The notes under the pieces are model-generated. The model saw nothing but the letters and a program-made list of their open reading frames with translations. It was not told where the DNA came from and made no database searches. From assembly GCA_963555755.3 (NCBI GenBank), contig OY820905.2, positions 3,136,001-3,200,000 on the forward strand: 64,000 nt of DNA, written 5' to 3'. The translations under genes were made by a program, and so were the position numbers. The first letter of the stretch is position 1. The number at the start of each line of letters is the position of its first letter. Below, piece after piece: positions 2,235-16,613 of this stretch. The DNA is from Nitrospirales bacterium. GTDB lineage: Bacteria > Nitrospirota > Nitrospiria > Nitrospirales > UBA8639.

Positions 2235-2951
2235 TCAATATCCCCAATGCTCATGCCGAACCGGCAGGCGGTTGAGCACCTCACGATAGAACTGCCAATT
2301 GGGCATGAATCGGTCCATTTGCGCAACGAAACGGGCGTTGTGCGTCGGTTCAAGTATGTGAACCATCTCGTGAACCACGATGTATTCAAGGCACTCTTGG
2401 GGTTTCTTTGCGAGGTCGGTGTTGAGGCGAATACTGTGCGTGCCCGAGTTGCAGCTGCCCCACTTGGTTTTCATGCGCTGCACAAAAAACTGCTCTACCT
2501 TCACGCAGATGAGCGGTTCCCATTTTGCGATCAAGAGCGGCACGACTTGCCTGAGCTGGACGCGATACCATTTTGCCACGATAGCCTGCTTCTTGTACTC
2601 ATCGGTTCCCGGACGAACGCGCAGAAGCATCCGGTTGTGCTTCAATTCGACGAACGATGATTGGTCGCTCTCCGAGACCGTGAGCAGGTAGCGCTTTCCC
2701 CAAACATAATGGCTTTCGCGGTTGAGATACTCACGCGGAGTTTCACGTGCTTGTTCGCAGAGTTTTTGCTGTTGGCTCTTGATCCAGCCAAGCTTGGTAA
2801 TGGCAAACACCCGGATGTTGTCGAGGTCCATTCTGAATGGGGCGGAGATTCGTACTTGGCCCGTTGGAGGGTAGACACTCAGGTGAATGTTCTTAATGCC
2901 CTTCTTTACCACATCCACGGTGATTTCACCCAGCTTGATCCGCGTGACCAT
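2235..2951 (-). CDS. M48/YgjP-like (DUF45) metallopeptidase, type I RM-associated
   Basis: MKTKWGSCN, YIVVHEMVH (HExxH), HNARF; directly follows hsdR. Confidence 0.9.
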   Translation of the reverse strand: MVTRIKLGEITVDVVKKGIKNIHLSVYPPTGQVRISAPFRMDLDNIRVFAITKLGWIKSQQQKLCEQARETPREYLNRESHYVWGKRYLLTVSESDQSSFVELKHNRMLLRVRPGTDEYKKQAIVAKWYRVQLRQVVPLLIAKWEPLICVKVEQFFVQRMKTKWGSCNSGTHSIRLNTDLAKKPQECLEYIVVHEMVHILEPTHNARFVAQMDRFMPNWQFYREVLNRLPVRHEHWGY

Positions 2952-5900
2952 CAGTATTCCTTCTGCTGCTTGATGATGAGAAAGATGCGCTCGACCTCAG
3001 CCTCGTTCTGCAAGATTCCATACAAGGCAGCTTTGATCACGCGTTCACGGGCTTGTACGCCCCGCCAGCCGTCGGGTCGGGTGCGCTTGACGGTTTCATC
3101 AATCTTGACCGCAAGTTCCAGCACATTATCGTTTGTCGCGTTCCCATAGGAACCCGTGGACTCTGCGGCAACGCTTGCATCGCCGACAGAGGCTCCCGAT
3201 CCGAGGTTATTATAGAGGGCGCGGCGCCCCGGCGTATTCAATTCTCCTGGCATATCCTCAGCCTGCCCGGCCTCTACTCTGTTGGCCAGTTCAGCGATGT
3301 GTCTCAAGTATTCTTCATATGCGATGGCCTTCGATCTGCGTGACGCAATGATCTCATTCAGCAATGCGGACATCTTGTCATAGTAGGCCGGATCGTTCAG
3401 GTGTTCCTTAATGATCTTGCGGCGAACGTTGTTCTCGATGGTCTCAGCGATGGCGTTCTTATTGCCCTTCAATCCGTCGAGCTGTGTGGCGATGGCATTG
3501 GCAATGCCCGTCTTCACGATCAACTCCAAAAGACCCATGTTATCGAAGGGCGAAATCTTCCTTGGCTCGTCCGCCTCGATGTAAGTGTCGATGAGATGCC
3601 GCATGTCGGCCTCGAAGGCTTTGAGGTCGAGCGTCTCACCACTGGCATTGCGGATGATTTCGCGGAGGTCCAGGTAGTGCTTGAGCTGTTGCTTGATGCG
3701 GTTGATGTCGGCACCGTCATATCCGGCAGCGTCCAGTTCGTCGGCAATGTTAGCGTAAGCGCGCACAAGCGCCACCGTCGCCTTGTAAAGCGCGGCGCGT
3801 TGTGGTTCCCGTTCCTTTAAATCGGCAGCGATCTCCGTGTTGCCGCAAAAGTAGTGGATGTGCTCCAACTCGCCTTTCGGCGGCTCCACGGGTTCGCACA
3901 ACAAGAGGAGAGCCTCCAGCGCGTGGTCGAGCCGTTCTTTTCCTTTCTTGAGGCGATCCTGTAGCAACACCTCAGGATCGGCGCCTCCCGCGCTGCGATC
4001 CAACTCAGTGGTATAGACGGCAATGGCGTTCTCCACCTTCTTGAACAGGTCCTTGTAGTCCACGATGTAGCCGAAATCCTTGTCCTCGCCGTCCAGCCGG
4101 TTGACGCGGCAAATGGCCTGGAACAGGCCGTGGTCCTGCATGGATTTGTCGATGTAGAGATAGGTGCAAGGCGGCGCGTCAAAGCCGGTGAGCAGCTTGT
4201 CCACCACAACGAGCAATTTCATATTCGACGGCTCCTTGGTGAACAGGGCCTTCGCCCACTCTTCGTAGGTCTCCGTCTTGGTCAGGCCCGGCTTGGCTTC
4301 GATGTTTTTTAGCAGCTCCGTGTAGGTGTTGTAGGTGAACTGCTTGTCCGTCTCGGTGTTCGCGCCGACTTCCTCCTTAGTCACGTCCTGGGCCTGTGGG
4401 TTATAGGATGTCACCACTGCGCACATGCCCTTGAACTGGGTCTTCTGAAACAAGGTGAAATACTTGCATGCTTCGTAGATGCTTGACGCCACCAGGAGGG
4501 CATTCCCGCGCTCGCTGGAAAGGCGCGGCTTCACGCTAAAGTCGAACACAATGTCGCTCACCACCCGATCCATCCGTGACTTGGAACTGAGCACGTTCTG
4601 CATCGTACCCCACTTCTGCTTCAGCTCATCCTTCTGCCAGTCGTTCAGTCCCTTGGTCTTGGCTTCAAACCATGCGTCGATCTTATCCACGGAGCCCAGT
4701 CTCTGGTCGATGTCCCGCGCCTCATAAACCAGATCCAGCACAACACCGTCCTCGACGCCCTCGCTGAACTTGTAAGTGTGGATGTAGCCGCCAAAGACCT
4801 CAAGGCTGGTCTGCTTGTCTTTCTTAAGGAGTGGGGTGCCGGTGAAACCGATAAAGACGGCATTGGGCATCATCGCCTTCATCACGCGGTGCAGCCTGCC
4901 GCTCTGCGTGCGGTGGCACTCGTCCACAAAAACGAATACCTCGCCCACCGTCTGACTGGGCTGCGCCTCCAACTCTTTGATGAACGCATCGAAATCATCC
5001 ACGTCTTTCCGACCAAACTTGTGGACGAGTGAGCAGAGCAACCGCGGCGTGGCTTGGCCGAGCTGGCTCATCAGGTCGCGGCCGCTGGTGGTGCGCTTAA
5101 TCGCCTCGCCTGATTCGGTAAAAACTCGCTCGATCTGTTTATCCAGCTCGTCGCGGTCGGTGATGATAGCCACGCGGGCGTTGGGATTGTTCTCCAGAAT
5201 CCACTTGGTCAGCAGTACCATCACGATGCTCTTCCCGCTCCCCTGCGTGTGCCAGATGATGCCGCCCTTCTTTTCTACCACATGGAGTTGAGCAGCCTTC
5301 ACACCGAAATACTGGTGCGTGCGCGGCAGCTTCTTTACACCGCCGTCAAAGAGCACAAAGTCGTGCATCAGCTCGATCAGCCGAGCCTTGCCACACATCT
5401 TGAGCAAATACTTGTCCAGCTTGAAGCGACTGTTGTCGTGCTCGTCTTCCTTCCACTTCAGGAAATACTTCTCCTGCGTGCCGATCGCGCCGTATTGCAA
5501 TCCCTCGGAGTCGTTGCCGGCGAAGATGAACTGCACCGTGCTGAAAAACCATTCATTGAACTCAGGCTGTTGATTGGACAGACTCTGTCGAATGCCGTCG
5601 CCGATGCTCACGCGGCTGTTCTTCAGCTCCAGCACGCCGATGGCAATGCCGTTCACATACAGCACCAGATCGGGCCGCCGCTCATGGTTCCCCTTGAGCG
5701 TCACTTCCTCGGCAATGGCGAAGTCATTCTGCTCAGGCTTCTGCCAATTGATGAGGTGGATGGTCTCCGTGACCTTGCCCGCCTCAATCTTCACCGGCAC
5801 GCCATAGCGCAGCAGTTTGTAGACCTCCTGGTTGTTGCCGTAGAGACTGCGGTTGTGGTTGTCCGCATCGGTGCGAAGTGCATGGATGGCCTTGTTGATC

Positions 5901-6073
5901 TGCGCCAGCTTGTAGTCGGATTTTGTCAGGTAGGCCGTGAGCAATCCTTCTTCAATGTTGCTGTTGCCATCCCGGTCCGTCCAATCACCGAGGTATCGGT
6001 AGCTCAACTCGTCGCGGAACAAAGCGATGACACGGTTCTGCGTGGCGCGTTCAGGTTGGCCGATGGTGCTCAT
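2951..6073 (-). CDS. hsdR: Type I restriction endonuclease subunit R
   Basis: RRPDLVLYVNG..ELK nuclease motif, WHTQGSGKS Walker A, DECHR, GFTGTP, LLTGFDAP, QAICRVNR. Confidence 0.96.
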   Translation of the reverse strand: MSTIGQPERATQNRVIALFRDELSYRYLGDWTDRDGNSNIEEGLLTAYLTKSDYKLAQINKAIHALRTDADNHNRSLYGNNQEVYKLLRYGVPVKIEAGKVTETIHLINWQKPEQNDFAIAEEVTLKGNHERRPDLVLYVNGIAIGVLELKNSRVSIGDGIRQSLSNQQPEFNEWFFSTVQFIFAGNDSEGLQYGAIGTQEKYFLKWKEDEHDNSRFKLDKYLLKMCGKARLIELMHDFVLFDGGVKKLPRTHQYFGVKAAQLHVVEKKGGIIWHTQGSGKSIVMVLLTKWILENNPNARVAIITDRDELDKQIERVFTESGEAIKRTTSGRDLMSQLGQATPRLLCSLVHKFGRKDVDDFDAFIKELEAQPSQTVGEVFVFVDECHRTQSGRLHRVMKAMMPNAVFIGFTGTPLLKKDKQTSLEVFGGYIHTYKFSEGVEDGVVLDLVYEARDIDQRLGSVDKIDAWFEAKTKGLNDWQKDELKQKWGTMQNVLSSKSRMDRVVSDIVFDFSVKPRLSSERGNALLVASSIYEACKYFTLFQKTQFKGMCAVVTSYNPQAQDVTKEEVGANTETDKQFTYNTYTELLKNIEAKPGLTKTETYEEWAKALFTKEPSNMKLLVVVDKLLTGFDAPPCTYLYIDKSMQDHGLFQAICRVNRLDGEDKDFGYIVDYKDLFKKVENAIAVYTTELDRSAGGADPEVLLQDRLKKGKERLDHALEALLLLCEPVEPPKGELEHIHYFCGNTEIAADLKEREPQRAALYKATVALVRAYANIADELDAAGYDGADINRIKQQLKHYLDLREIIRNASGETLDLKAFEADMRHLIDTYIEADEPRKISPFDNMGLLELIVKTGIANAIATQLDGLKGNKNAIAETIENNVRRKIIKEHLNDPAYYDKMSALLNEIIASRRSKAIAYEEYLRHIAELANRVEAGQAEDMPGELNTPGRRALYNNLGSGASVGDASVAAESTGSYGNATNDNVLELAVKIDETVKRTRPDGWRGVQARERVIKAALYGILQNEAEVERIFLIIKQQKEY

Positions 6074-6576
6074 GTCAGCACCTTCCAGTGGCCGCCTTTT
6101 TGGGGTCCGACAAATTTCAAGCGACCGGCCTTGACCAGATTGGCACTAGCGCGTTCAACCGCACTGACAGATTTTCCAATTGCAACAGCTACTTCAGAAA
6201 GCGTCATCTCAGGATTATCCGCGAGTACCTGAAGGATTTTCACCGGCGTTTTCACCGGCGTTTTCACCGGCGTTTTTTCTCCGGATTTATTGGCTCCCGG
6301 CATCTCATATTCTGATGGGAGCATGGGAAAAGCAAACTCGATCCAGAGGCCGTGGCTATCGTAACTGAAGTGAGGAGCGGTATAACCCTGTTCAATACAG
6401 GTGTTGCGGATGAGGTCAATGCCACGGCCCCATGCTTCGATTTTGCCAGCTCGAAAGAAAGCATTTGCGATGTCAGGATTCGCCGGCTGCGATGGATGTT
6501 TGGCAAGGAGTCGTTCCAAAGACCAATCGGGCGGCAGTTGGCCGGGATTCAATTTGATGTGTTGGGATTCTTTCAT
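6070..6576 (-). pseudogene. Internally deleted AlbA_2/Schlafen-HATPase-HTH ATP-binding protein
   Basis: MKESQHI start joined directly to NPGQLPPDWS..NPDIANAFFRAGKIEAWGRG and a C-terminal wHTH (VGPQKGGHWKV); far shorter than the usual family member. Confidence 0.65.
6238..6276. repeat. 12-bp tandem repeat x3 (KTPV)3
   Basis: tttcaccggcgt repeated three times in frame. Confidence 0.9.
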
Positions 6577-7328
6577 ACCATCCATGCCTTCGGGGCAGGT
6601 GTCTGGCGTGTGGGGATGGGCGAATGATTATTCGCCCCTACGAGGGGGGTGTGTAGGGAATTCCGTTCCCATTGTATCGGGTTATCCAGAATATATTGCC
6701 GGATACGATTCAATTCCGTTTCATTCCGAATAATGTGATCCCAATAATTACGTTGCCAGATTTTGGATGAGACAGATCGTTGCCGGTACCATGTTGTCAC
6801 CCCAATTTTGAATCCACGCACCATAGCCCCGATGGTGCGGGCCGTGCCGGTGGGGTGCGGTGGATTGGCGGATGGGGGCGAATTATGTTTTGATTGTATG
6901 GGCAAATGATTATTCGATTGTAGGGGCGAATAATTATTCGCCCCTACGATAATCACGATGCCGTGAATGTGGTTGGGCATGACCACCCATCCGTCCAATT
7001 CAACATTTGGGAAATGATCAGGAATCTGCAACCAGCAATCGGCGGCCGCACGTCCCGCATCATTCAAACCCATCGCGCCCTCCGTGATGGTTCCGAAACG
7101 GCAAAGCCGATTCTGTGCGCAAATGGTAATAAAATAGGCCCCCGCTTGGGAATAATCATAGCCCCGCAACCGAACCGAACGACGGGGTCGCGGCCGATCG
7201 TTATCCGATTGTACGGACGAATGGTTTGTGGGTATGGCCGGATCATTGATGGGTAGGGGCGAATAATTATTCGCCCGAACGGGTATAGGTGATGGAATAG
7301 GCGCCACCCTGGTAATCATGGTTGTCAT
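6573..7328 (-). CDS. REP-associated tyrosine transposase (RAYT / Y1 HUH)
   Basis: RRSVRLRGYDYSQAGAYFITIC, HUH motif MPNHIHGI, WQRNYWDHIIR..YILDNP. Confidence 0.92.
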   Translation of the reverse strand: MTTMITRVAPIPSPIPVRANNYSPLPINDPAIPTNHSSVQSDNDRPRPRRSVRLRGYDYSQAGAYFITICAQNRLCRFGTITEGAMGLNDAGRAAADCWLQIPDHFPNVELDGWVVMPNHIHGIVIIVGANNYSPLQSNNHLPIQSKHNSPPSANPPHPTGTARTIGAMVRGFKIGVTTWYRQRSVSSKIWQRNYWDHIIRNETELNRIRQYILDNPIQWERNSLHTPLVGANNHSPIPTRQTPAPKAWMV

Positions 7329-7595
7329 ATCAATCGAATCCTGCCGGTTACCAATGCGTGCATTATGCCCTGTTTCACCGTGCGGGTGTTGGTTGCCCTT
7401 CCTGCGGTGTTTGCGATGTTCATGATGGGGATGGGCGAATGATGATTCGCCCCTACGGGGATGGATGATGATCGGGGGATTGTTTTGGGCATCATGGGTT
7501 TCATGTCAATCGAATCCGTCCCGATAATCATTCCTGTATCCTGCGATAATTTCGGTGCCCAGGTGGTGTAGGGGCGAATAATTATTCGCCTGAAC
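6614..7595. repeat. GTAG-type REP palindromes, 5 copies (6614-6641, 6920-6947, 7253-7280, 7429-7456, 7568-7595)
   Basis: Perfect 28-bp palindrome gtaggggcgaataattattcgcccctac at 6920-6947; four variants nearby. Confidence 0.93.
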
Positions 7596-7690
7596 GGGTA
7601 TAGGTGATGGAACAGGGATCGCCTTGGTCATCATGATTGTCATATCAATCGAATTTTCCCGGTTAATAATTCCTGCATCATGCCCTGCTT
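7253..7690. repeat. Three tandem diverged units of REP + 44-nt spacer + hsdS 3' tail
   Basis: REP starts 7253/7429/7568, each exactly 72 nt before tcatRtcaatcgaat at 7325/7501/7640. Confidence 0.88.
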
Positions 7691-8791
7691 GAGCTGGCGG
7701 GTTTTGGCCAGCTTGGTTTCCAGCGCGGCGATCTCCGCGTCCATGTCGCTCAGGATGGCGGCGATGGCGGATTGTTCGTCTGGATCAGGTCTGTTGATTT
7801 CGATTGCTTCGATTGTCCGTGCATTGAGGCTCGGAACGCCGGACGCCTCGTTATGTTGTTTCCAGTTGATCAAACAGCACCGATAGAAGATAAACTTGGC
7901 ATGATTGGGTGCATGAACGTCTGAGTAGAAGAGCGTGTCCACCGTCCAGAACGGGGTGTCCATGTATTGAGGTTGGTCAATCGTTCCCTTTCGACCGATC
8001 AGGACAGATGGCTTATCGTAGAGGAAGCGATTCGTCCTGCCAATTTCGCCGCCAGTCGCAAGGATTGGGTAAAGTCCGTCCATAGCTTCCACGTCACGCT
8101 GACTCCTGCCATGGCAGATGGTCAACATTTCCCCCAACCGTTTTATTTCCCACTCCCCGCTGAAGCCCGGTAGGCGCGTTTTGCCGGTGAGGAGTTCCTG
8201 CATGGCGCCTTGTTTGAGGTGGCGTTTTTTGGTGAGGAGTTGCTCCAGGGATTCGATGAGGGCATCCGCATCGCTCAACGCCTCCGCGATGGCTTCTTGT
8301 TCGGGAATGGGAGGCAGGGTGATTGGAAGAGTCTTGACAATTTTGAAACTTAGAGCGGGCATCGCACCGCCAAACATGGATGTTTGGAAGTAATTAAATG
8401 CTTTATCGCTCTTGAGGTATATATACAGAAAGTCTTTTGACAACTTGGAGAGTATTGGCTCAACCTTGAAAAGATTATTTGCCAATACTCCTTGCAGCCC
8501 CCTACCGATAAAGCCTGCGGTGGCCCCATACCGAACGACTACTATATCTTGTTCATTGACAACTTTGTTCCAACACAAATGTGGAGTTATGAATCGGTAA
8601 TCATCAGAGCCTTGGGTATAGTTTTCGATTCGAAGAAATCTTACAAGTCCATCGCTGTAAGAGGCTAATTGCTTGTCTAAATCAACCTGTATTCCTTGCG
8701 TGAAACGGCATACCTCACCTAATTCTTTGGTAATCCACTCCTCCGGAATCACCCCCAACTCGGTCTGCTTGTAGCCGGGTTTCACTTCCAT
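7640..8791 (-). CDS. hsdS: Type I RM specificity subunit S
   Basis: GYKQTELGVIPEEW, LPPIPEQEAIAEALSD, two KQGxMQELLTGK conserved repeats, two TRDs. Confidence 0.95.
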   Translation of the reverse strand: MEVKPGYKQTELGVIPEEWITKELGEVCRFTQGIQVDLDKQLASYSDGLVRFLRIENYTQGSDDYRFITPHLCWNKVVNEQDIVVVRYGATAGFIGRGLQGVLANNLFKVEPILSKLSKDFLYIYLKSDKAFNYFQTSMFGGAMPALSFKIVKTLPITLPPIPEQEAIAEALSDADALIESLEQLLTKKRHLKQGAMQELLTGKTRLPGFSGEWEIKRLGEMLTICHGRSQRDVEAMDGLYPILATGGEIGRTNRFLYDKPSVLIGRKGTIDQPQYMDTPFWTVDTLFYSDVHAPNHAKFIFYRCCLINWKQHNEASGVPSLNARTIEAIEINRPDPDEQSAIAAILSDMDAEIAALETKLAKTRQLKQGMMQELLTGKIRLI

Positions 8792-11202
8792 GAAAACCCC
8801 ATTGTCGCTAAATGGCGGTTCACTTTCACCTCCAACTCAGCCACACGGCTGACCATCTGCGGTATTGGGGTTTCATAGCGTTCGGCCAGTTCCTTCACCC
8901 GCTGGGTGAGGGTCTGGCTGATGCGGTCCATTTCCCCGTGGATGTCGCGGTCCAGCGCGGCGAGCCATTTGTCGTCCACTACCAGCGTCTGAATCTCAGC
9001 CTCGGTGAGCTTGGGATATTGGGCGTAGGCTTTGGCGTCCAGCTCGGCCTCCGCGTCCTTCAGTTTCTTTTTGAGTTCGGTTTCCCTGTTGCTGAATTCC
9101 AGCCATTCCTCCAACACCTTCTTCTCTTCCGCTATCAATTCTCCATTCTCAATTTTCAATTCCTTCAGTCGCGCACCGACTGAAGCCTTATTCACCTTGT
9201 CCAGCTCAGAGAACGCGCCGTCCTCCCCACCGTATTCCTCCTCCAGCTCGGTGATTTGAGCGGTAACGGTTTCCAACTCAGCCACGAGTTTGTCGATGGC
9301 TTCTTGCTCCCTGGCAAAATAGCGGGCGACGATGAGCGACTTGGGCACGAGGTCGCAGATCCAGCCTTTGTCTTTTTCCTTGCCTTTCTTGTCTTTCTCG
9401 ATGATGCGGGTGGTTTCGGCCTTCCAGCCGTCGTCGGCGATGAGGTAGCAGTCGTCCTGCATGGTTTCGGCCCAGTAGTCCATGAGGTGTTGATAGACAT
9501 CGTAATTGTCGATGAGCGGTTTGCCTGTGTAGTGGGCGAGTAGGTCCTCGGAGAGTGCGACGATGATTTCTTTCGGATGGCAATCAGACTTCAATGCCTT
9601 AAGCGTCTTGGCGGTTTTTTTCTGCCATTCGGCGAAGTGGGCGTTCATGCCGGTGATGAAGGTGGCGAACTCCGGGTGCTCGTAGATGGTGGGCTTTAAT
9701 TGAGAGGGGAGAATGGATAATTGAGAATAATTGGGGCGGAGGGGTTGGAAGAGGGCGGCTTTGAGGTTGGGGCAGATGGACCAATACTTTTCCATTGCGT
9801 CGATGTCGCGGTTGGGGATGCCGCCTTTCAGGTGGCCTTCGATGTCCTGGAGGTCTTCGGGCTCTTGGCTATCAATGTAGCGCGGGAGGTTGAGGTTGAA
9901 CTCGTTCTTTTCGATTTCCTCGAAGGAGACCATGCGGGAATATTTGGGGACATCGAGGCGTTTGTTAAAGACATCCACAATCTTATGGATGTCTTGAGAG
10001 CGGAGGCGGTTTTTGGGGCCGTCCTTCATGAAGCCTGCGCTGGCATCAACCATGAAGATGCCCTTGCGGGTGTGGGCGTCCTGCTTGTCGACGACGACGA
10101 TGCAGGCGGGGATGCCGGTGCCGAAGAAAAGGTTAGCTGGCAGGCCGATGATGCCCTTGAGGTAGCCCTTGCGGATGAGGTTTCGGCGAATGTCGGCCTC
10201 GGCATTTCCCCGGAACAGGACGCCATGCGGCAGAATGCAGGCGCCTTTTCCACTTCCACTTGGGCCCGTGCTTTTGAGTGAGCGGACGATGTGTAGCAGG
10301 TAGGCGTAGTCGCCTTGCTTGCCGGGCGGCGTACCGAAAGGCTTGAAGCGCTCGAAGGGGTCGTTGAGCGGGTCGATGCCGGTGCTCCAGCGTTTGTCGG
10401 AAAATGGCGGATTGGCGACGACGTAGTCGAATGTCTTGAGGGTGCCGCCGTCCTGGAACTTGGGATCGGCCAGCGTGTTGCCTTGCACGATGAGCGCGGT
10501 GGGGTTGTTGTGCAGGATCATGTTCATCCGTGCGAGACCACTGGTCGCGGCGTCTTTTTCCTGTCCATAGAGGGTGACGGCGGTACGGGCCTCGTCAGAC
10601 ACCTTTAGAAGTAGGGAGCCTGAGCCGCATGTTGGGTCATAGACGGTGGTATCGCTGGTCGTCTTGGCGTCATGGATGCCGATGATTTGGGCGATGATGC
10701 GGCTGACCTCGGCGGGCGTGTAGAACTGACCCTTGCTCTTGCCACTCTGCGTGGCGAAGTGGCGCATGAGGTATTCATAGGCATCGCCAAGGATGTCATC
10801 GCCTTCGGCGCGGTTCTTGGAGAAGTCGAGCGCCTTGTTCTCGAAGATGGCGACGAGATTAGTGAGGCGGTCCACCATCTCCTTGCCGGTGCCCAGCTTA
10901 GTGGCGTCATTGAAGTCCGGCATGTCGGACAGTTTGTTGGCATTGGCCAGCGGGGCGATGATTTTCTTGTTGATCTGATCGCCGATGTCGGACTTGCCCT
11001 TGAGCGCGACCATGTCCTTGAAGGAGGCGCCTTCGGGGATGGTGATGGGCGCGTAGGGGACGCCGGCGTATTTGTCGCTGACGTATTTGATGAAGAGCAG
11101 GACAAGGACGTAATCCTTGTATTGGCTAGCATCCATGCCGCCGCGCAGTTCGTCGCAGCTACTCCAGAGTGAGCTGTAGAGTTGAGATTTCTTTAAGGCC
11201 AT
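8782..11202 (-). CDS. hsdM: Type I RM N6-adenine methyltransferase subunit M
   Basis: CDELRGGMDASQYKDY, GQFYTP, DPTCGSGSLL, ANPPF, LPHGVLFRG. Confidence 0.96.
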   Translation of the reverse strand: MALKKSQLYSSLWSSCDELRGGMDASQYKDYVLVLLFIKYVSDKYAGVPYAPITIPEGASFKDMVALKGKSDIGDQINKKIIAPLANANKLSDMPDFNDATKLGTGKEMVDRLTNLVAIFENKALDFSKNRAEGDDILGDAYEYLMRHFATQSGKSKGQFYTPAEVSRIIAQIIGIHDAKTTSDTTVYDPTCGSGSLLLKVSDEARTAVTLYGQEKDAATSGLARMNMILHNNPTALIVQGNTLADPKFQDGGTLKTFDYVVANPPFSDKRWSTGIDPLNDPFERFKPFGTPPGKQGDYAYLLHIVRSLKSTGPSGSGKGACILPHGVLFRGNAEADIRRNLIRKGYLKGIIGLPANLFFGTGIPACIVVVDKQDAHTRKGIFMVDASAGFMKDGPKNRLRSQDIHKIVDVFNKRLDVPKYSRMVSFEEIEKNEFNLNLPRYIDSQEPEDLQDIEGHLKGGIPNRDIDAMEKYWSICPNLKAALFQPLRPNYSQLSILPSQLKPTIYEHPEFATFITGMNAHFAEWQKKTAKTLKALKSDCHPKEIIVALSEDLLAHYTGKPLIDNYDVYQHLMDYWAETMQDDCYLIADDGWKAETTRIIEKDKKGKEKDKGWICDLVPKSLIVARYFAREQEAIDKLVAELETVTAQITELEEEYGGEDGAFSELDKVNKASVGARLKELKIENGELIAEEKKVLEEWLEFSNRETELKKKLKDAEAELDAKAYAQYPKLTEAEIQTLVVDDKWLAALDRDIHGEMDRISQTLTQRVKELAERYETPIPQMVSRVAELEVKVNRHLATMGFSWK

Positions 11203-11227
11203 TGAAGAACTTCCCTTGCCTGCCTAA

Positions 11228-11384
11228 GGGCTCGCGCAAAAATAACTTCCCATGTTTGGGTGCTGAGGCGCCTGTCTGGCAAGGCGCGAGGACTGCGCAT
11301 ACTCCTCGTATGGAAAGGACGAGCAACGCGGCCAGACAGGATGGATCGTCGCCCAAACATGGGAAGTTATTTTTGCGCGAGCCC
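11228..11384. mobile_element. 157-bp MITE with 33-bp perfect terminal inverted repeats
   Basis: gggctcgcgcaaaaataacttcccatgtttggg (11228-11260) and its exact reverse complement (11352-11384); taa on both flanks. Confidence 0.85.
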
Positions 11385-12535
11385 TAAATACCGTCCAATT
11401 GTTTCCAAGCCTTTCTCTTTGTAAGCGTCGCGACCTGGTTCAATGCATCGATCGTGTGTGTTTGTAGATTGAGTCGCCCCTTCTTCTTTTCCCAATTGTT
11501 GACGGACGACACATTCACGCCGAGAAGCTTGGCGAATTGGCCTTGCGCCATGTCAAACTTCGCTCGCAACTCTCTCACGGTCTTGCCTGTAGGGGATCGA
11601 ACGCTCAACACTGTACGCGATACCTTCTTGACATCCGCTTTTTTTGAAGCAGTGCCTTTCTCGCGATCGACTAAGCTACTGTTCGTCTTTGACTTCTTTT
11701 TCGCCAGCTGCTTGCCTGCGGTCTTGCCGGTCGTCTTTCCTTTGCCGGAGCGTGTGGCAGTTCGCTTAGTGGCCGTTGTCCGGCTCAAACCATGTTGGGA
11801 TCGATCCTTCCCCGACGCTTCTTCTTCAGCCATCTCAATCCCAAATACGTCTTTGAGGTCGCCTTTGACGATGCGCCGGCGACCGCCTCCTTCCCCGGCG
11901 GTTGCGGCCAAGACCGCGTCGGCGTCAGCGCTGATCAATTCCTCATGGTCCACGCCACGCAGAAGGAACAGCATCTCCGGCTTGTCATCGAGCCTCGCTC
12001 CCACTCCGTACAGTACCGCGGCAACGTGCTTGCACATGACGGCCCAATCAGGACAGGTGCAGTTCAAACTGATCTCACTGGAAAGCGGGAACAGCCCCTT
12101 CTCGCGGTCGGTGACGACCGCCATGATGCTCTTGGAAAGCTTGCCCTGAAGCAGTTCCAACAAGGAGCCGATCTGTCCGACACAGCGGCTTTTCACGTCG
12201 TCCCATTTCCTTTTCGGCAATGTCTTGATCGAGACGGTCACGGTGTACAGATCCGAACCGCTGACCATCGCCTTGACCGTGCCCTTGTATAATTCAAGAT
12301 GACACACCGAACCGTTGCGGACATAGGTGCGCCCGCGTGGCAAGCGATTCTCGTAGTCGCCCAACGATTCGAAGTGGGCACACCATGCCTCGCCCCAGAA
12401 TGTTCGAGCGATCTTTCGCCCCTCGATTTCCACGGGCTGGATATTGGCACCCGTTTTTCGCAACTTGCCCATTTTCTTCAACGCACGTGTGCGGCGAACG
12501 GCTACAGGAACGTATGGCTTCCAGCTCCAATACAT
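11384..12535 (-). CDS. SWIM zinc-finger protein with Lys-rich linker and C-terminal XRE-like HTH
   Basis: NRLPRGRTYVRNGSV, CTCPDWAVMCKH SWIM motif; RELRAKFDMAQGQFAKLLGVNVSSVNNWEK; GGAGG RBS before ATG at 12535. Confidence 0.88.
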   Translation of the reverse strand: MYWSWKPYVPVAVRRTRALKKMGKLRKTGANIQPVEIEGRKIARTFWGEAWCAHFESLGDYENRLPRGRTYVRNGSVCHLELYKGTVKAMVSGSDLYTVTVSIKTLPKRKWDDVKSRCVGQIGSLLELLQGKLSKSIMAVVTDREKGLFPLSSEISLNCTCPDWAVMCKHVAAVLYGVGARLDDKPEMLFLLRGVDHEELISADADAVLAATAGEGGGRRRIVKGDLKDVFGIEMAEEEASGKDRSQHGLSRTTATKRTATRSGKGKTTGKTAGKQLAKKKSKTNSSLVDREKGTASKKADVKKVSRTVLSVRSPTGKTVRELRAKFDMAQGQFAKLLGVNVSSVNNWEKKKGRLNLQTHTIDALNQVATLTKRKAWKQLDGI

Positions 12536-12545
12536 TTTGAACCTC

Positions 12546-15248
12546 CTACATCCTGGCTCGATCAATATCCAGCGCAACAAGATCGAGCAGCTCTTGATCA
12601 CTCATTTCGGTCAACATGCTTTCGGCGCCGCCCTCTAGGATATCATTAGCAAGCTCTGTTTTCTCTTGGATCAGCGCGTCGATCTTCTCCTCGACCGTGC
12701 CCCGGCAGATGAACTTGTGGACCACCACGTTCCGGTGTTGGCCGATGCGGAACGCGCGGTCCGTCGCCTGATTCTCCACCGCGGGGTTCCACCAGCGGTC
12801 GAAATGAACCACGTGTGACGCGGCCGTGAGATTTAACCCTGTTCCGCCCGCCTTGAGAGAAAGCACGAAGAACGGCGGACCGTTTTCCCGCTGGAACGCA
12901 TCGACCCATGTCTGACGCTTCTTGACGGCCGTACCGCCATGCAAAATAAGTCCTTCCCGGCCGAAGAGGTTCCCGAGGAAGGCGGCGACCGGGTCCGTCA
13001 TCTCGCGGAACTGCGTAAACACAAGCACCTTTTCCTGACGCGAGTGGATCTCCTGGCAGATGGCCCCAAGGCGGTCGAATTTTCCGCTTGCAGCCGGATC
13101 ATACCCCCCATCACCCAGCAACTGGCTGGGGTGGTTGCAAATTTGCTTGAACCGCATCAGGTACGCCAAGACCAGCCCGCGCCGCTTCATACCCTCAAGC
13201 CCCTCCAACGCGCGCTTTAACTCGTCGACAGACTTTGCATATAAAACTGCCTGTTGCTTCGAAAGCCCACAGAAGGCCTTCATTTCGGTCTTGTCGGGCA
13301 GATCCGAAATGATTGCCCTATCGGTCTTGAGACGACGAAGGATATAGGGACGCACCAGGCGGCGCAGTGGCGCATAGCGATCCTGCTGGCGATCATCCAA
13401 CCCCTTGACGAACCGCTTGAATTTACTGGCCGACCCCAGCAGACCAGGGCAAAGAAAATCAAATAGTGACCACAGGTCGGACAGCCGGTTTTCCACCGGG
13501 GTACCCGTCATCGCAACCCTCGCCTCACTCGTGATCTTCTTGACCGCCCGAGTCTGGCGCGCCGACGGGTTCTTGATCGCCTGGGCCTCGTCCAGGATCA
13601 TCAGCCGCCAATCCACGTCAAGTAGCCAACCCTGGCGCACGAGCATCCCGTAGGTGGTCAGAACGATATCCGTTTTTTCGAACGCCCTACCAGGGTTTCT
13701 GGCCATGGCAGCGAGATCGGCTTTGGCCGACTCAGACGGATGGACAAAACAGGACACCAGTGTGGGGGTGAACCGTGCCATCTCCGCCTTCCAGTTCGCA
13801 AGCAGCGAGGCCGGAAGCACCAGCAACGACGGCTTGGCTGGCTGTTTGTCGGCCTGCTTGACCGAGAGTAACAGCGACAAAACCTGGATGGTCTTGCCCA
13901 ATCCCATGTCATCGGCAAGGCATGCGCCCAGGCCAAGATTCGAAAGGAACCACAGCCAGTTGTGCCCCGTCTGCTGATATGGCCGGAGGGTTCCGAGAAA
14001 GCCCTCGTTCCGTCTGACCGTGGCCAGTTCATCCGGATTGCGTAAGCCAGAAAGAATATCCGAAAGCCAGCTCCCGGCGTTGATGGTTGACCACGAGCGA
14101 TCCCCGTCTTGTGATATTGCGTCGGCGTCGAGATCCGACGGCGCGCCAGCGAGCAACCGCATCCCCTCGATAAAAGAAATCCCTTCCTCGCTTGCTTCCT
14201 TCTTCACGTGTTCCCAATGCGCCAAGGCTTCGGAGAGCCGCTCTCGGTCGACTTCGATCCATTGCCCTTTCAGATAAACAAGCCCCTCATCGGCTTCCAT
14301 AAGCCGTTGCCATTCCTCTTGGGTCAACTCTCGGTCGTCCAAGGCGATCCCGACCTTGAAGTCCAGCATGGCATCGACCCCGAAGCGGTTCTGTTTTTTC
14401 TCACCGAGGGTCACGGCCACGCGTGGCCGTGACCGCTTGCGCCACCAGTTCGGCACCCGCACGAGTAGGCCGCTCTCTTCCAGCAATGGAACCTCCTTGA
14501 GAAAGCGGTACGCTTCGCCGGGCGTCCAAGCCAGAGGGTGAAACACATCGCCCGATTCGACCAATGCCTTGACAAAATCGCTCTTCTGCGACGCCAAGTG
14601 CACGGGCGACAATAGGTTCACCATGGTTTTTTTATTGCGTTCGCCCGCATACTCACGCATGGCCTGATGCAGTGGCTGGTACTGCACGTGTCCGCCTTTG
14701 GAAAGACGCGGTGCATACGTCGCGAGAAACGCGAACGGGAGATTAGGATCGTGCTTGTTTTCCGCAAGATGAAAGCAGACGCGCCCGACCTGGTGCCAGA
14801 GTGGAGCCTGCTTGTTTAGCCACCGAGCCAGCCCAACTCCGGATGTGGCAACTGCTTGCCGCACCCACGTGTCCAAGTCAACCCAAAGGTCGTGAATAAC
14901 AGCCTCGCTCAAGTACTCCGCGCCGTGCATGGGCGGGATTGACAGCAGCATGGTGGCCACTTCCGCCTCTGTGGGTAAGTCGATCGAAGCCGGTTGTTCC
15001 CAGGCGGACTCCGGCGTACGACAAAGCTCGGTCATGTAACGGCAGGAAAAATCTCGCCAGTAGGAAATGGCCGAAGAAGTTGGCGCATCCGGCCTTGATG
15101 CCCCAAGCGCAAAAAGACCGGCAGCCTGGCACGATGAAAAGGCGTCAAGCACTTTCTTGATCCAACCGCGGGGCTGATTCTCGCCTGCCGTATGATCCTC
15201 TTGCATGGTCAAGTGACCGGCTGGCGTCAAGATGAGTTGGAGGCTCAT
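12546..15248 (-). CDS. SNF2/SWI2-family DEAD/H helicase
   Basis: LADDMGLGKT, DEAQAIKN, TGTPVEN, SLKAGGTGLNL, QATDRAFRIGQ. Confidence 0.94.
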   Translation of the reverse strand: MSLQLILTPAGHLTMQEDHTAGENQPRGWIKKVLDAFSSCQAAGLFALGASRPDAPTSSAISYWRDFSCRYMTELCRTPESAWEQPASIDLPTEAEVATMLLSIPPMHGAEYLSEAVIHDLWVDLDTWVRQAVATSGVGLARWLNKQAPLWHQVGRVCFHLAENKHDPNLPFAFLATYAPRLSKGGHVQYQPLHQAMREYAGERNKKTMVNLLSPVHLASQKSDFVKALVESGDVFHPLAWTPGEAYRFLKEVPLLEESGLLVRVPNWWRKRSRPRVAVTLGEKKQNRFGVDAMLDFKVGIALDDRELTQEEWQRLMEADEGLVYLKGQWIEVDRERLSEALAHWEHVKKEASEEGISFIEGMRLLAGAPSDLDADAISQDGDRSWSTINAGSWLSDILSGLRNPDELATVRRNEGFLGTLRPYQQTGHNWLWFLSNLGLGACLADDMGLGKTIQVLSLLLSVKQADKQPAKPSLLVLPASLLANWKAEMARFTPTLVSCFVHPSESAKADLAAMARNPGRAFEKTDIVLTTYGMLVRQGWLLDVDWRLMILDEAQAIKNPSARQTRAVKKITSEARVAMTGTPVENRLSDLWSLFDFLCPGLLGSASKFKRFVKGLDDRQQDRYAPLRRLVRPYILRRLKTDRAIISDLPDKTEMKAFCGLSKQQAVLYAKSVDELKRALEGLEGMKRRGLVLAYLMRFKQICNHPSQLLGDGGYDPAASGKFDRLGAICQEIHSRQEKVLVFTQFREMTDPVAAFLGNLFGREGLILHGGTAVKKRQTWVDAFQRENGPPFFVLSLKAGGTGLNLTAASHVVHFDRWWNPAVENQATDRAFRIGQHRNVVVHKFICRGTVEEKIDALIQEKTELANDILEGGAESMLTEMSDQELLDLVALDIDRARM

Positions 15249-15428
15249 GGGTGCGTCTTGGAGGAACGGATGCGGCATCTACACGATCACCATCGTTAGA
15301 CCAATCATGATAAAAAATGGGGCACTTCTAACATTCCTACATTTCCTGCTATTCCGAATCACAAAACAGGGGGCAGAGTACTTGAAATATTTCAGAATCG
15401 AATCACGCGCTCTGACCCCTTGAGTACG

Positions 15429-16613
15429 TTATTGGCTGAGTTCCTTCATGAGATCAGTGAGAGAAATGGCACGGGTTTTCTGGCCAAGTGGAAAGGTTTC
15501 CTCACCGGCATAGACCACAAAACGCTTGGTGGCTTTCACATCTTCACAAGCCGTATAAAAACCTTTGGACAGGGATGGCGCACTGCTCCGCTTAATCTCA
15601 ATCGCCCATTTTTCCTTACTCGTCAACTCAAGCAATAAATCAATTTCTGCCCCACCTGATGTCCGGTAAAAGTAGGGTTTTATCCGTGAGGGCGTGATAG
15701 AGAGAATATTTTCAATGACAAAACCTTCCCAACTTCCGCCAATCACCGGATGACCCATCAGATCGTTAAATGTCTGGATATTGAGCAAGGCATGGGTGAT
15801 TCCACTGTCTCGCACATAGATTTTTGGAGCCCGGATAAGACGCTTGCCGATATTGTCCGTCCACGGTTGGAGCCGGCGAACTAACAGCAGATCCACTAAG
15901 AGATCCAAATACCGTGTCACAGACTGTCCGCTGACACCAAGGTTTCTCGCAAGGTGCGCGGCATTGACCATCGTACCTTGATGGTGCGCCAACATGGTCC
16001 AAAAACGGCGTAAGGTTTCAGCTGGAATCCGTGGGCCAAGCTGAGGAATGTCTCGTTCAAGGTAGGTTCGGAGAAAATCATCTCTCCAGTCTAGGCTGTC
16101 CTCATCAGATTTGGTGAGTAGACTTTCTGGAAAGCCACCACGGAGCCATAGCCGGGTGAGCTGGCGTTGCAGGCTTTGTTTCTTTTGATGCCCGAGCCAT
16201 TCAAGGCTATCGATAGGATGCAACTCAATATAGGCGAGTCTTCCGGCAAGGGTTTCACTCGATTGTTTGAGCAGGTCAAGGGAGGCCGATCCAAGAAATA
16301 AGAATTGCCCGACCTTGTTGCCGCGTCTTCGCTCTTTATCAATGATTCCACGAAGCGGTGCAAAGATTTCAGGAATACGTTGAATCTCATCGACAATGAT
16401 GAGCTTTTCTCTGTTCTCTGTATGAAATGCCTCAATATCGCTGATTTTGGCCAAATCCCGAGGCTTTTCCAGATCCAAGTAGACCGACGGACGACAATCC
16501 GCAATGTTCAGGGCCACAGTCGTTTTCCCCACCTGGCGGGGTCCTATAAGAGCCACAGCCGGATTTCGGTCCAGTAAACTCTGAATTTTGTTTTGGATTC
16601 TACGCTCGATCAT
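15429..16613 (-). CDS. AAA_14 ATPase with DUF4143 domain
   Basis: GPRQVGKTT, DEIQR, LGSAS, RGGFPES, YLERDIP, PKIYVRDSG, EIDL..IEIK. Confidence 0.9.
   Translation of the reverse strand: MIERRIQNKIQSLLDRNPAVALIGPRQVGKTTVALNIADCRPSVYLDLEKPRDLAKISDIEAFHTENREKLIIVDEIQRIPEIFAPLRGIIDKERRRGNKVGQFLFLGSASLDLLKQSSETLAGRLAYIELHPIDSLEWLGHQKKQSLQRQLTRLWLRGGFPESLLTKSDEDSLDWRDDFLRTYLERDIPQLGPRIPAETLRRFWTMLAHHQGTMVNAAHLARNLGVSGQSVTRYLDLLVDLLLVRRLQPWTDNIGKRLIRAPKIYVRDSGITHALLNIQTFNDLMGHPVIGGSWEGFVIENILSITPSRIKPYFYRTSGGAEIDLLLELTSKEKWAIEIKRSSAPSLSKGFYTACEDVKATKRFVVYAGEETFPLGQKTRAISLTDLMKELSQ

Follow-up and report, generated by a model that had tools for sequence, protein, structure and literature searches.

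What do repeated copies of the end of a gene, lying between that gene and its neighbour, record? The question is raised by a type I restriction-modification (R-M) operon in a Nitrospirales bacterium (UBA8639; GCA_963555755.3, contig OY820905.2, 3,136,001-3,200,000, forward strand). We refer to this whole stretch of 64,000 nt as the window. The operon lies on the minus strand and consists of hsdM, hsdS, a 440-nt array, a RAYT-like gene, a shortened AlbA/ATPase/HTH gene, hsdR, and an M48 peptidase gene. With hsdM, hsdS and hsdR on the same strand and extra genes between hsdS and hsdR, it is a type I R-M operon with embedded cargo. A preliminary description of the array took its units to be relics of successive hsdS replacements or cassette insertions anchored on REP palindromes, and proposed a RAYT-assisted system for diversifying specificity.

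Three diverged units between hsdS and a RAYT-like gene

The features of the operon are as follows.
2235..2951, minus strand: M48/YgjP-like metallopeptidase gene, last of the operon
2951..6073, minus strand: hsdR, 1040 aa; its first 50-100 nt (the head) are found as relics in related loci
6070..6585, minus strand: AlbA_2/HATPase_c_4/HTH cargo gene, internally deleted, 171 aa (452 aa in L108)
6573..7328, minus strand: RAYT/TnpA-REP-like Y1 HUH gene, 251 aa, with in-frame REPs; the N-terminus is leader 3 plus REP3
6614..6641, minus strand: REP in the C-terminal coding part of the RAYT-like gene
6917..6950, no strand given: double-foot REP (GTAG...CTAC), in frame between the HUH and Tyr motifs; fold z -6.8
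7253..7276, plus strand: REP3, inside the RAYT leader, with its GTAG foot on the plus strand
7325..7392, minus strand: relic hsdS tail 3; 80% over 71 nt, profile E 7e-8
7325..7504, minus strand: unit 2 mini-ORF, 59 aa, covering leader 2, REP2 and relic tail 3 in the hsdS frame; its stop overlaps the RAYT ATG
7429..7456, minus strand: REP2, with its GTAG foot on the minus strand; 94% over 35 nt to the REP at 6611-6645
7501..7544, minus strand: relic hsdS tail 2; 77% over 44 nt, with a stop codon within the hsdS frame
7506..7643, minus strand: unit 1 mini-ORF, 45 aa, covering a RAYT-type leader, REP1, a spacer and tail 2 out of frame
7568..7591, plus strand: REP1, with its GTAG foot on the plus strand
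7640..8791, minus strand: hsdS, 383 aa, two TRDs; the stop overlaps the next ATG
8782..11202, minus strand: hsdM, type I methyltransferase, 806 aa, domains N6_Mtase and HsdM_N

The array contains three diverged units, each with an hsdS tail, a RAYT leader and a REP, at the positions first described. The palindromes begin at 7253, 7429 and 7568 and keep the same register: 72 nt separate each of them from its copy of the hsdS stop region (7325, 7501 and 7640). Our reading of the three tail translations and three leaders agrees with the earlier one. When the units are aligned, identity is 84% over 140 nt between units 1 and 3 and about 70% over 145 nt for unit 2; the corresponding E values in a genome search are 3e-36 and 7e-12. 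The preliminary description did not mention that the array is laid out as a relay. The hsdS stop overlaps the 45-aa ORF, which ends 1 nt ahead of the unit 2 ATG, and the 59-aa ORF that follows runs up to the RAYT start. Little weight can be given to this layout, as any tail ends in a stop there in two of its three frames anyway.

The conserved tail comprises the final ~130 nt of hsdS. The relics in the window correspond to the conserved coiled-coil end of the gene (44-71 nt) and hold no TRD remnant, and hsdS has a single match in the window's genome. Between tail 1 and tail 3, six of nine changes fall at third codon positions (P 0.04). Leaders 1 and 3 match each other best (68/78 nt). However, leader 2 is nearer to a unit in the related locus L108 (64/78) than to its neighbours in the window (55/78 and 52/78), and local duplication or conversion has therefore also acted. 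No hsdR head was detectable in the window units by protein score (ranks 32 and 65 of 2222). A head origin for the 36 nt that precede tail 3 was considered and rejected, as these ranks lie within background.

Single Logan contigs span the whole array in three of four runs from two studies, with 0-1 other letters, and we therefore reject an assembly artefact; the spanning runs may include the source sample. Among the joints listed, with 87 more beyond the list, the contigs show one form of the array, although contigs drop rare variants. Run X8 was left out, since it covers hsdR but not the array at a depth of ~3. A contig joint from 6580 to 8184, placing the end of hsdS directly on the AlbA gene, was also set aside; it has only a 20-nt side and is probably from another organism.

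The REP palindromes and the RAYT-like gene

The hairpins of the three units fold better than shuffled sequences (z -3.1 to -4.1). REP2 is oriented opposite to REP1 and REP3, which the preliminary description had missed. In the 4.6 Mb genome, allowing up to four mismatches, all five REP copies are at this locus, two of them within the RAYT frame (6614 and 6920). A genome-wide REP family is thereby ruled out. The feet alternate as in a BIME or REPIN, yet the copies lie within ORFs and are confined to the locus.

The HUH and Tyr motifs of the RAYT are intact, and residues H120, H122 and Y212 are invariant across 33 relatives. An alignment to E. coli TnpA-REP 4ER8 covers both motifs (E 0.003), and GTAG-footed hairpins flank the gene. 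Its match to NCBIfam NF047646 (E 2e-15) is split in two by the REP insertion and reaches 56.8 bits against a cut-off of 80; a Pfam scan gave no match. About 15 proteins with 65-76% identity have the same N-terminal leader with a REP. TnpA-REP subclass 2.4, or RAYT Group 4, is described as having an in-frame REP between HUH and Tyr, double-foot REPs and a low REP copy number (Quentin et al. 2018; Bertels et al. 2017; 10.1101/279083; PMC5581495). The window is alike in all of these features, and the in-frame and double-foot REPs fit this group as judged from sequence. The main texts of these two papers do not link subclass 2.4 genes to R-M operons, nor do the parts available to us mention duplication of a gene head together with the tail of its neighbour.

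No RAYT relative above 50% identity was found among 40 related genomes, and no RAYT with the leader among 400 genomes of the phylum; 400 genomes of the order gave one head-only case. Close relatives were likewise absent from viral contigs and plasmids. One protein of the window clade (P0007) is a RAYT fused in frame to a RhuM-family N-terminus. The window's genome also contains a second RAYT-like gene (G000:C1:3807028-3807419), which is distant and apparently broken.

Relatives of the RAYT cassette

The number of units varies among related loci. L018 has no extra unit, L017 has one orphan tail, L098 has two units, the window three, L292 three tails, and L108 at least four. In L018 the gene order is that of the window, without the leader. 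The RAYT of L017 follows a type III R-M pair and a RhuM/Fic gene, and an hsdS tail directly precedes its start even though the 11-kb contig contains no hsdS. L098 consists, in order, of an hsdS tail, leader, REP pair, the final 9 nt of a tail, an AbiE cassette, a fusion of hsdR head and hsdS tail, and a whole RAYT. Its two copies are thus separated by 1.3 kb of cargo, and the two leaders have a 30-nt exact run in common. In L108 the RAYT itself is deleted from REP to REP, that is, from the leader REP to the inner REP. The joint between units 2 and 3 is common to L108 and the window, and the two arrays thus share ancestry and are not independent. In L292 a leader and half a REP are joined in frame to a tail; a third tail and a GmrSD gene come next, and the 19.5 kb of sequence contain no RAYT. 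Taken together, the states of L017, L098, L108 and L292 indicate that the tail moves along as the leading part of the RAYT cassette, the body of which is repeatedly lost from the REP onward.

The AlbA_2/HATPase_c_4/HTH gene is whole in L108 (721-2076) and carries different internal deletions in the window (6070-6585) and L018 (5609-5890), in both of which it stays coupled to hsdR. In the window its linker (6237-6276) contains a 12-nt repeat three times in tandem; similar 12-nt repeats are seen in relatives.

Relic gene ends in loci without a RAYT

We surveyed 64 loci: the window, L018, and 62 that were fetched as a subset of hsdS-tail and hsdM matches. Thirteen were dropped because hsdM or hsdR was absent from the stretch, leaving 51, of which 49 have neither a RAYT nor a window-type REP in the hsdS-hsdR interval. 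DNA profiles of real hsdS tails and hsdR heads (E < 0.001) identified relics in 13 of these 49 intervals, comprising 13 tails, one of them borderline, and five heads. This is a lower bound, as the profiles missed the short relics of L292. The same search gave no match on the minus strand or in five shuffles of the 127 kb, and one in 299 kb downstream. The single downstream match is an hsdS-tail relic in L263 near 14156 (oriented), downstream of hsdR and M48.

By a crude count of cargo ORFs, relics occur in 0/14 loci with no ORF, 0/11 with one, 5/11 with two, and 8/13 with three or more, that is, in 0 of 25 loci with at most one cargo ORF and 13 of 24 with two or more. The loci are kin and not independent, and hence no P value is given. 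Cargo is variable across the 51 loci and includes AbiEii, GmrSD, AAA ATPase, RT, UvrD and AlbA_2. Across this operon family, the hsdS stop codon contains the start of the cargo gene, which then extends to the hsdR start. A collapsed AbiE remnant is repeatedly the cargo nearest hsdR, often with an hsdR-head relic ahead of it (L217, L221, L243, L238 and L292).

Seven linkers in which an hsdR head is joined to an hsdS tail lie between cargo genes in the subfamily of the window (L241, L216 twice, L238, L274, L217 and L098). In three of them the head ranks 1, 1 and 4 of 2222 by protein score. A distant subfamily, whose HsdR is ~29% identical, has three more (L111 and L116 twice). All ten linkers are in frame at the joint, with about four classes of joint. 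The head and tail of the linkers have IA(A)L codons in common, and L143 an exact 9-mer. However, a longest-common-substring test of head against tail for each locus ranked this site first in only 3 of 33 loci, and it is therefore a modest and not a unique microhomology.

In E. coli, tail matches were found in 273 of 5426 genomes at a median of one place, and little stacking is visible with that query. No relic was identified in the E. coli loci L278 and L279, despite two cargos in L279.

Dependence of the units on the RAYT or the REP, as first proposed, is not supported by these results. Type I loci without a RAYT carry the same tail duplications, an outcome that the preliminary description had itself named as refuting its reading. 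Judged on sequence organization, the hsdS-hsdR interval is a cassette slot and its unit is tail, cargo and head.

Cassettes and TRDs in pairs of loci

Two copies of the operon occur in one genome of the window's genus (G003, L238 and L239), with ~91-94% identical hsdM and hsdR and all TRDs different. L239 consists of hsdS, cargo and hsdR. The two share a tail-cargo-head block (93% identity over 1624 nt), which runs into hsdR in L239 and joins a relic tail and older cargos in L238. Similarly, a single linker lineage (78% over 139 nt) is found between different cargos in L241 and L216, showing that linkers persist while their neighbours change.

L110 and L111 are nearly identical in TRD1 (98.7% over 824 nt) and from the RAYT through hsdR (99.6% over 5.7 kb), and differ in TRD2 and in one RT cassette with its linker, at which there is no REP. 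Most of the 20 downstream differences fall within the spacer ahead of the RAYT start, which points to a block swap with long arms. The cassette gene, between hsdS and the RAYT in L111 (3271-4803), encodes a 510-aa reverse transcriptase (RVT_1), possibly a defence RT. In L221 and L243 the cargo array is kept (91% over 5.8 kb) while both TRDs differ and no unit is gained. Units therefore do not count TRD replacements. As regards co-variation of unit number and TRD2, unit number varies among relatives and TRD2 changes along with cassette number in the one pair L110/L111, but the TRDs of L221/L243 are swapped with no such gain.

Origin of the units

The related loci have a tail-cargo-head organization with relics at cassette borders and in-frame linkers, and in the RAYT clade they have deletions close to the REP. 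We consider it reasonably probable (roughly 0.6) that the units of the window are the kept fronts of RAYT cassettes that were stacked in the hsdS-hsdR slot, the bodies having been lost by deletions between the REP and the next hsdS tail, with the RAYT as at most one source of breaks. A cassette would be added by recombination through long homology on one side (hsdM and conserved hsdS, or RAYT and hsdR) and a short-homology joint on the other, by which an hsdS tail would become linked to the right end of the cassette, either an hsdR head or a REP. The combination of one long arm and one short-homology joint resembles that of homology-facilitated illegitimate recombination. Reintegration of a circle or unequal crossover could give the same product. 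The tail may be retained because the coupled start of the next gene sits in it, and existing relics could then act as crossover arms. In the RAYT clade the hairpin of the leader REP would be a recurrent break point at which stacked copies shrink to tail-leader-REP units, perhaps reshuffled later by unequal recombination, and the RAYT itself would be a passenger.

Stacking is favoured because L098, L108 and the RAYT-less L292 show such deletion states, and because 13 of the 24 RAYT-less intervals with two or more cargos carry border relics. Against it, no event was observed, and no window-like pair of alleles differing by one unit was found, the contigs showing one form. The window units contain no detectable hsdR head, and they adjoin hsdS, whereas the eroded cassettes of RAYT-less arrays mostly adjoin hsdR. 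Relics are also lacking from 11 of 24 multi-cargo loci and from E. coli L279. Given the sister leaders 1 and 3 and the 30-nt run in L098, local duplication or conversion fits as well as import. A history without cassettes, in which slippage or unequal crossover simply duplicated the hsdS-RAYT junction in tandem and the copies then decayed, is nevertheless quite unlikely. While it would agree with those sister leaders and with the expansion of like units in L108, it fits poorly with the similarity of unit 2 to a unit of another genome, with the cargo between the L098 copies, and with a head in L292 in the absence of a RAYT.

The RAYT might instead have made the units by binding the REP, cutting single-stranded DNA at CT and transferring the REP end to an hsdS tail, duplicating or deleting the head of a cassette, as has been proposed for BIME growth. 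E. coli TnpA-REP is described as cutting in vitro at CT on either flank of the REP and as carrying out strand transfer (PMC3479197). In line with this, the right end of every unit is 0-45 nt past a REP, the joints of L098 and L292 both read GTA then CT, the GTAG feet alternate in the window, and the HUH and Tyr residues are intact. We regard this origin as doubtful, however, as tail relics arise with neither RAYT nor REP, CT is common, and there has been no spread of the REP through the genome. On its tail side the L292 joint begins before C and not at T, so that one of the two joints is off the C-T bond. Hairpins also favour deletions without any enzyme. A broader form of the idea would make type I R-M operons integrase-free defence cassette arrays, in which subclass 2.4 RAYTs act as a resident nickase that joins the leader REP to the hsdS tail, adding or removing cassettes while the linkers, being in frame, keep hsdR translated. 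This is speculative and in our opinion unlikely; if true, domesticated transposases would gain a host function.

Very unlikely, finally, is the original proposal that each unit records a REP-anchored replacement of an hsdS allele and that the RAYT serves diversification of type I specificity. The pair L110/L111, with the same TRD1 and RAYT-hsdR region but a different TRD2 and one additional cassette plus linker, is what it would predict, and the third-position bias of tail 3 suggests a former coding end of hsdS. But the L111 linker has no REP, the relics contain no TRD sequence, TRDs are swapped without gain of a unit in L221/L243, 13 RAYT-less loci carry relics, and the contigs show no second allele. 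Moreover, where the joint lies downstream of the real stop of hsdS, as it does in the window, the resident gene stays unchanged. What survives of the proposal is turnover of cassettes at the end of hsdS, and the array is likely not a dedicated specificity-switching system.

Relation to known systems

The hsdS-hsdR slot has been called a potential hotspot of recombination for defence genes, including an EPEC RRDM island with DarTG2 (PMC12255303), and embedding of defence genes in type I operons, termed 'guilt by embedding', as widespread (Payne et al., 10.1101/2024.01.29.577857). The layout in these papers, hsdM-hsdS-cargo-hsdR-M48, is that of the window. It is also that of an E. coli locus with an HsdM 56% identical to that of the window, in which darT lies behind hsdS. 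The cassette slot is therefore known. Relic hsdS tails, hsdR heads and in-frame linkers are not described in the parts of these papers available to us, and our search of the literature, covering few subscription papers, found no report of relic head-tail linkers or of a RAYT in the slot.

In the lpl cluster of S. aureus, an evolutionary unit made up of a 3' ORF end, an intergenic region and a 5' ORF end is reported to move by crossing-over at conserved parts of genes (Tsuru and Kobayashi 2008, PMC2568036). That unit likewise spans gene borders, but within an array of paralogues, whereas here unrelated cargo lies between two core genes and leaves fused relics of gene ends.

In hsdS shufflons, TRD exchange and domain movement, conserved regions of hsdS serve as crossover arms. 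Similar arms are indicated here, and TRD2 differs between L110 and L111. However, this locus has no silent TRD-bearing hsdS copy, inverted repeats or invertase, and its relics cannot supply a new specificity. An integron carries its cassette array behind one promoter, with short linkers, an integrase and attI/attC sites. The working of a cassette array is similar, but the linkers described here derive from the ends of hsdR and hsdS, the joints vary, and no tyrosine recombinase was found among nine ORFs scanned around the locus.

The head-tail relics provide a sequence-level record of gene entry and stacking, which the available parts of the slot papers leave unexplained, with the window itself as a decayed example. 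Seen in two distant type I subfamilies, they suggest a route that can be tested, in which a long homology arm is combined with a short-homology joint that preserves the frame. As the relics mark cassette borders, they may also aid mining for new defence genes. Should the RAYT catalyze the joining of REP to tail, the findings would carry much greater weight.

Neighbouring genes and elements

In L214 (7398-10639, minus strand), upstream of a type III R-M pair, there is what we take to be a 605-aa SIR2-like ORF followed by a 451-aa short Argonaute-like ORF. Directly upstream of hsdM in the window is a 159-nt element (11227-11385) with perfect 34-nt terminal inverted repeats. It has 175 near-full-length copies in the genome, the best of which are 94-96% identical, and constitutes a MITE-like family. 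Further upstream on the same strand as hsdM are a SWIM/HTH and SNF2 helicase gene pair (11384-15278) and an AAA_14/DUF4143 gene (15429-16613), which possibly belong to the same defence island as the operon.
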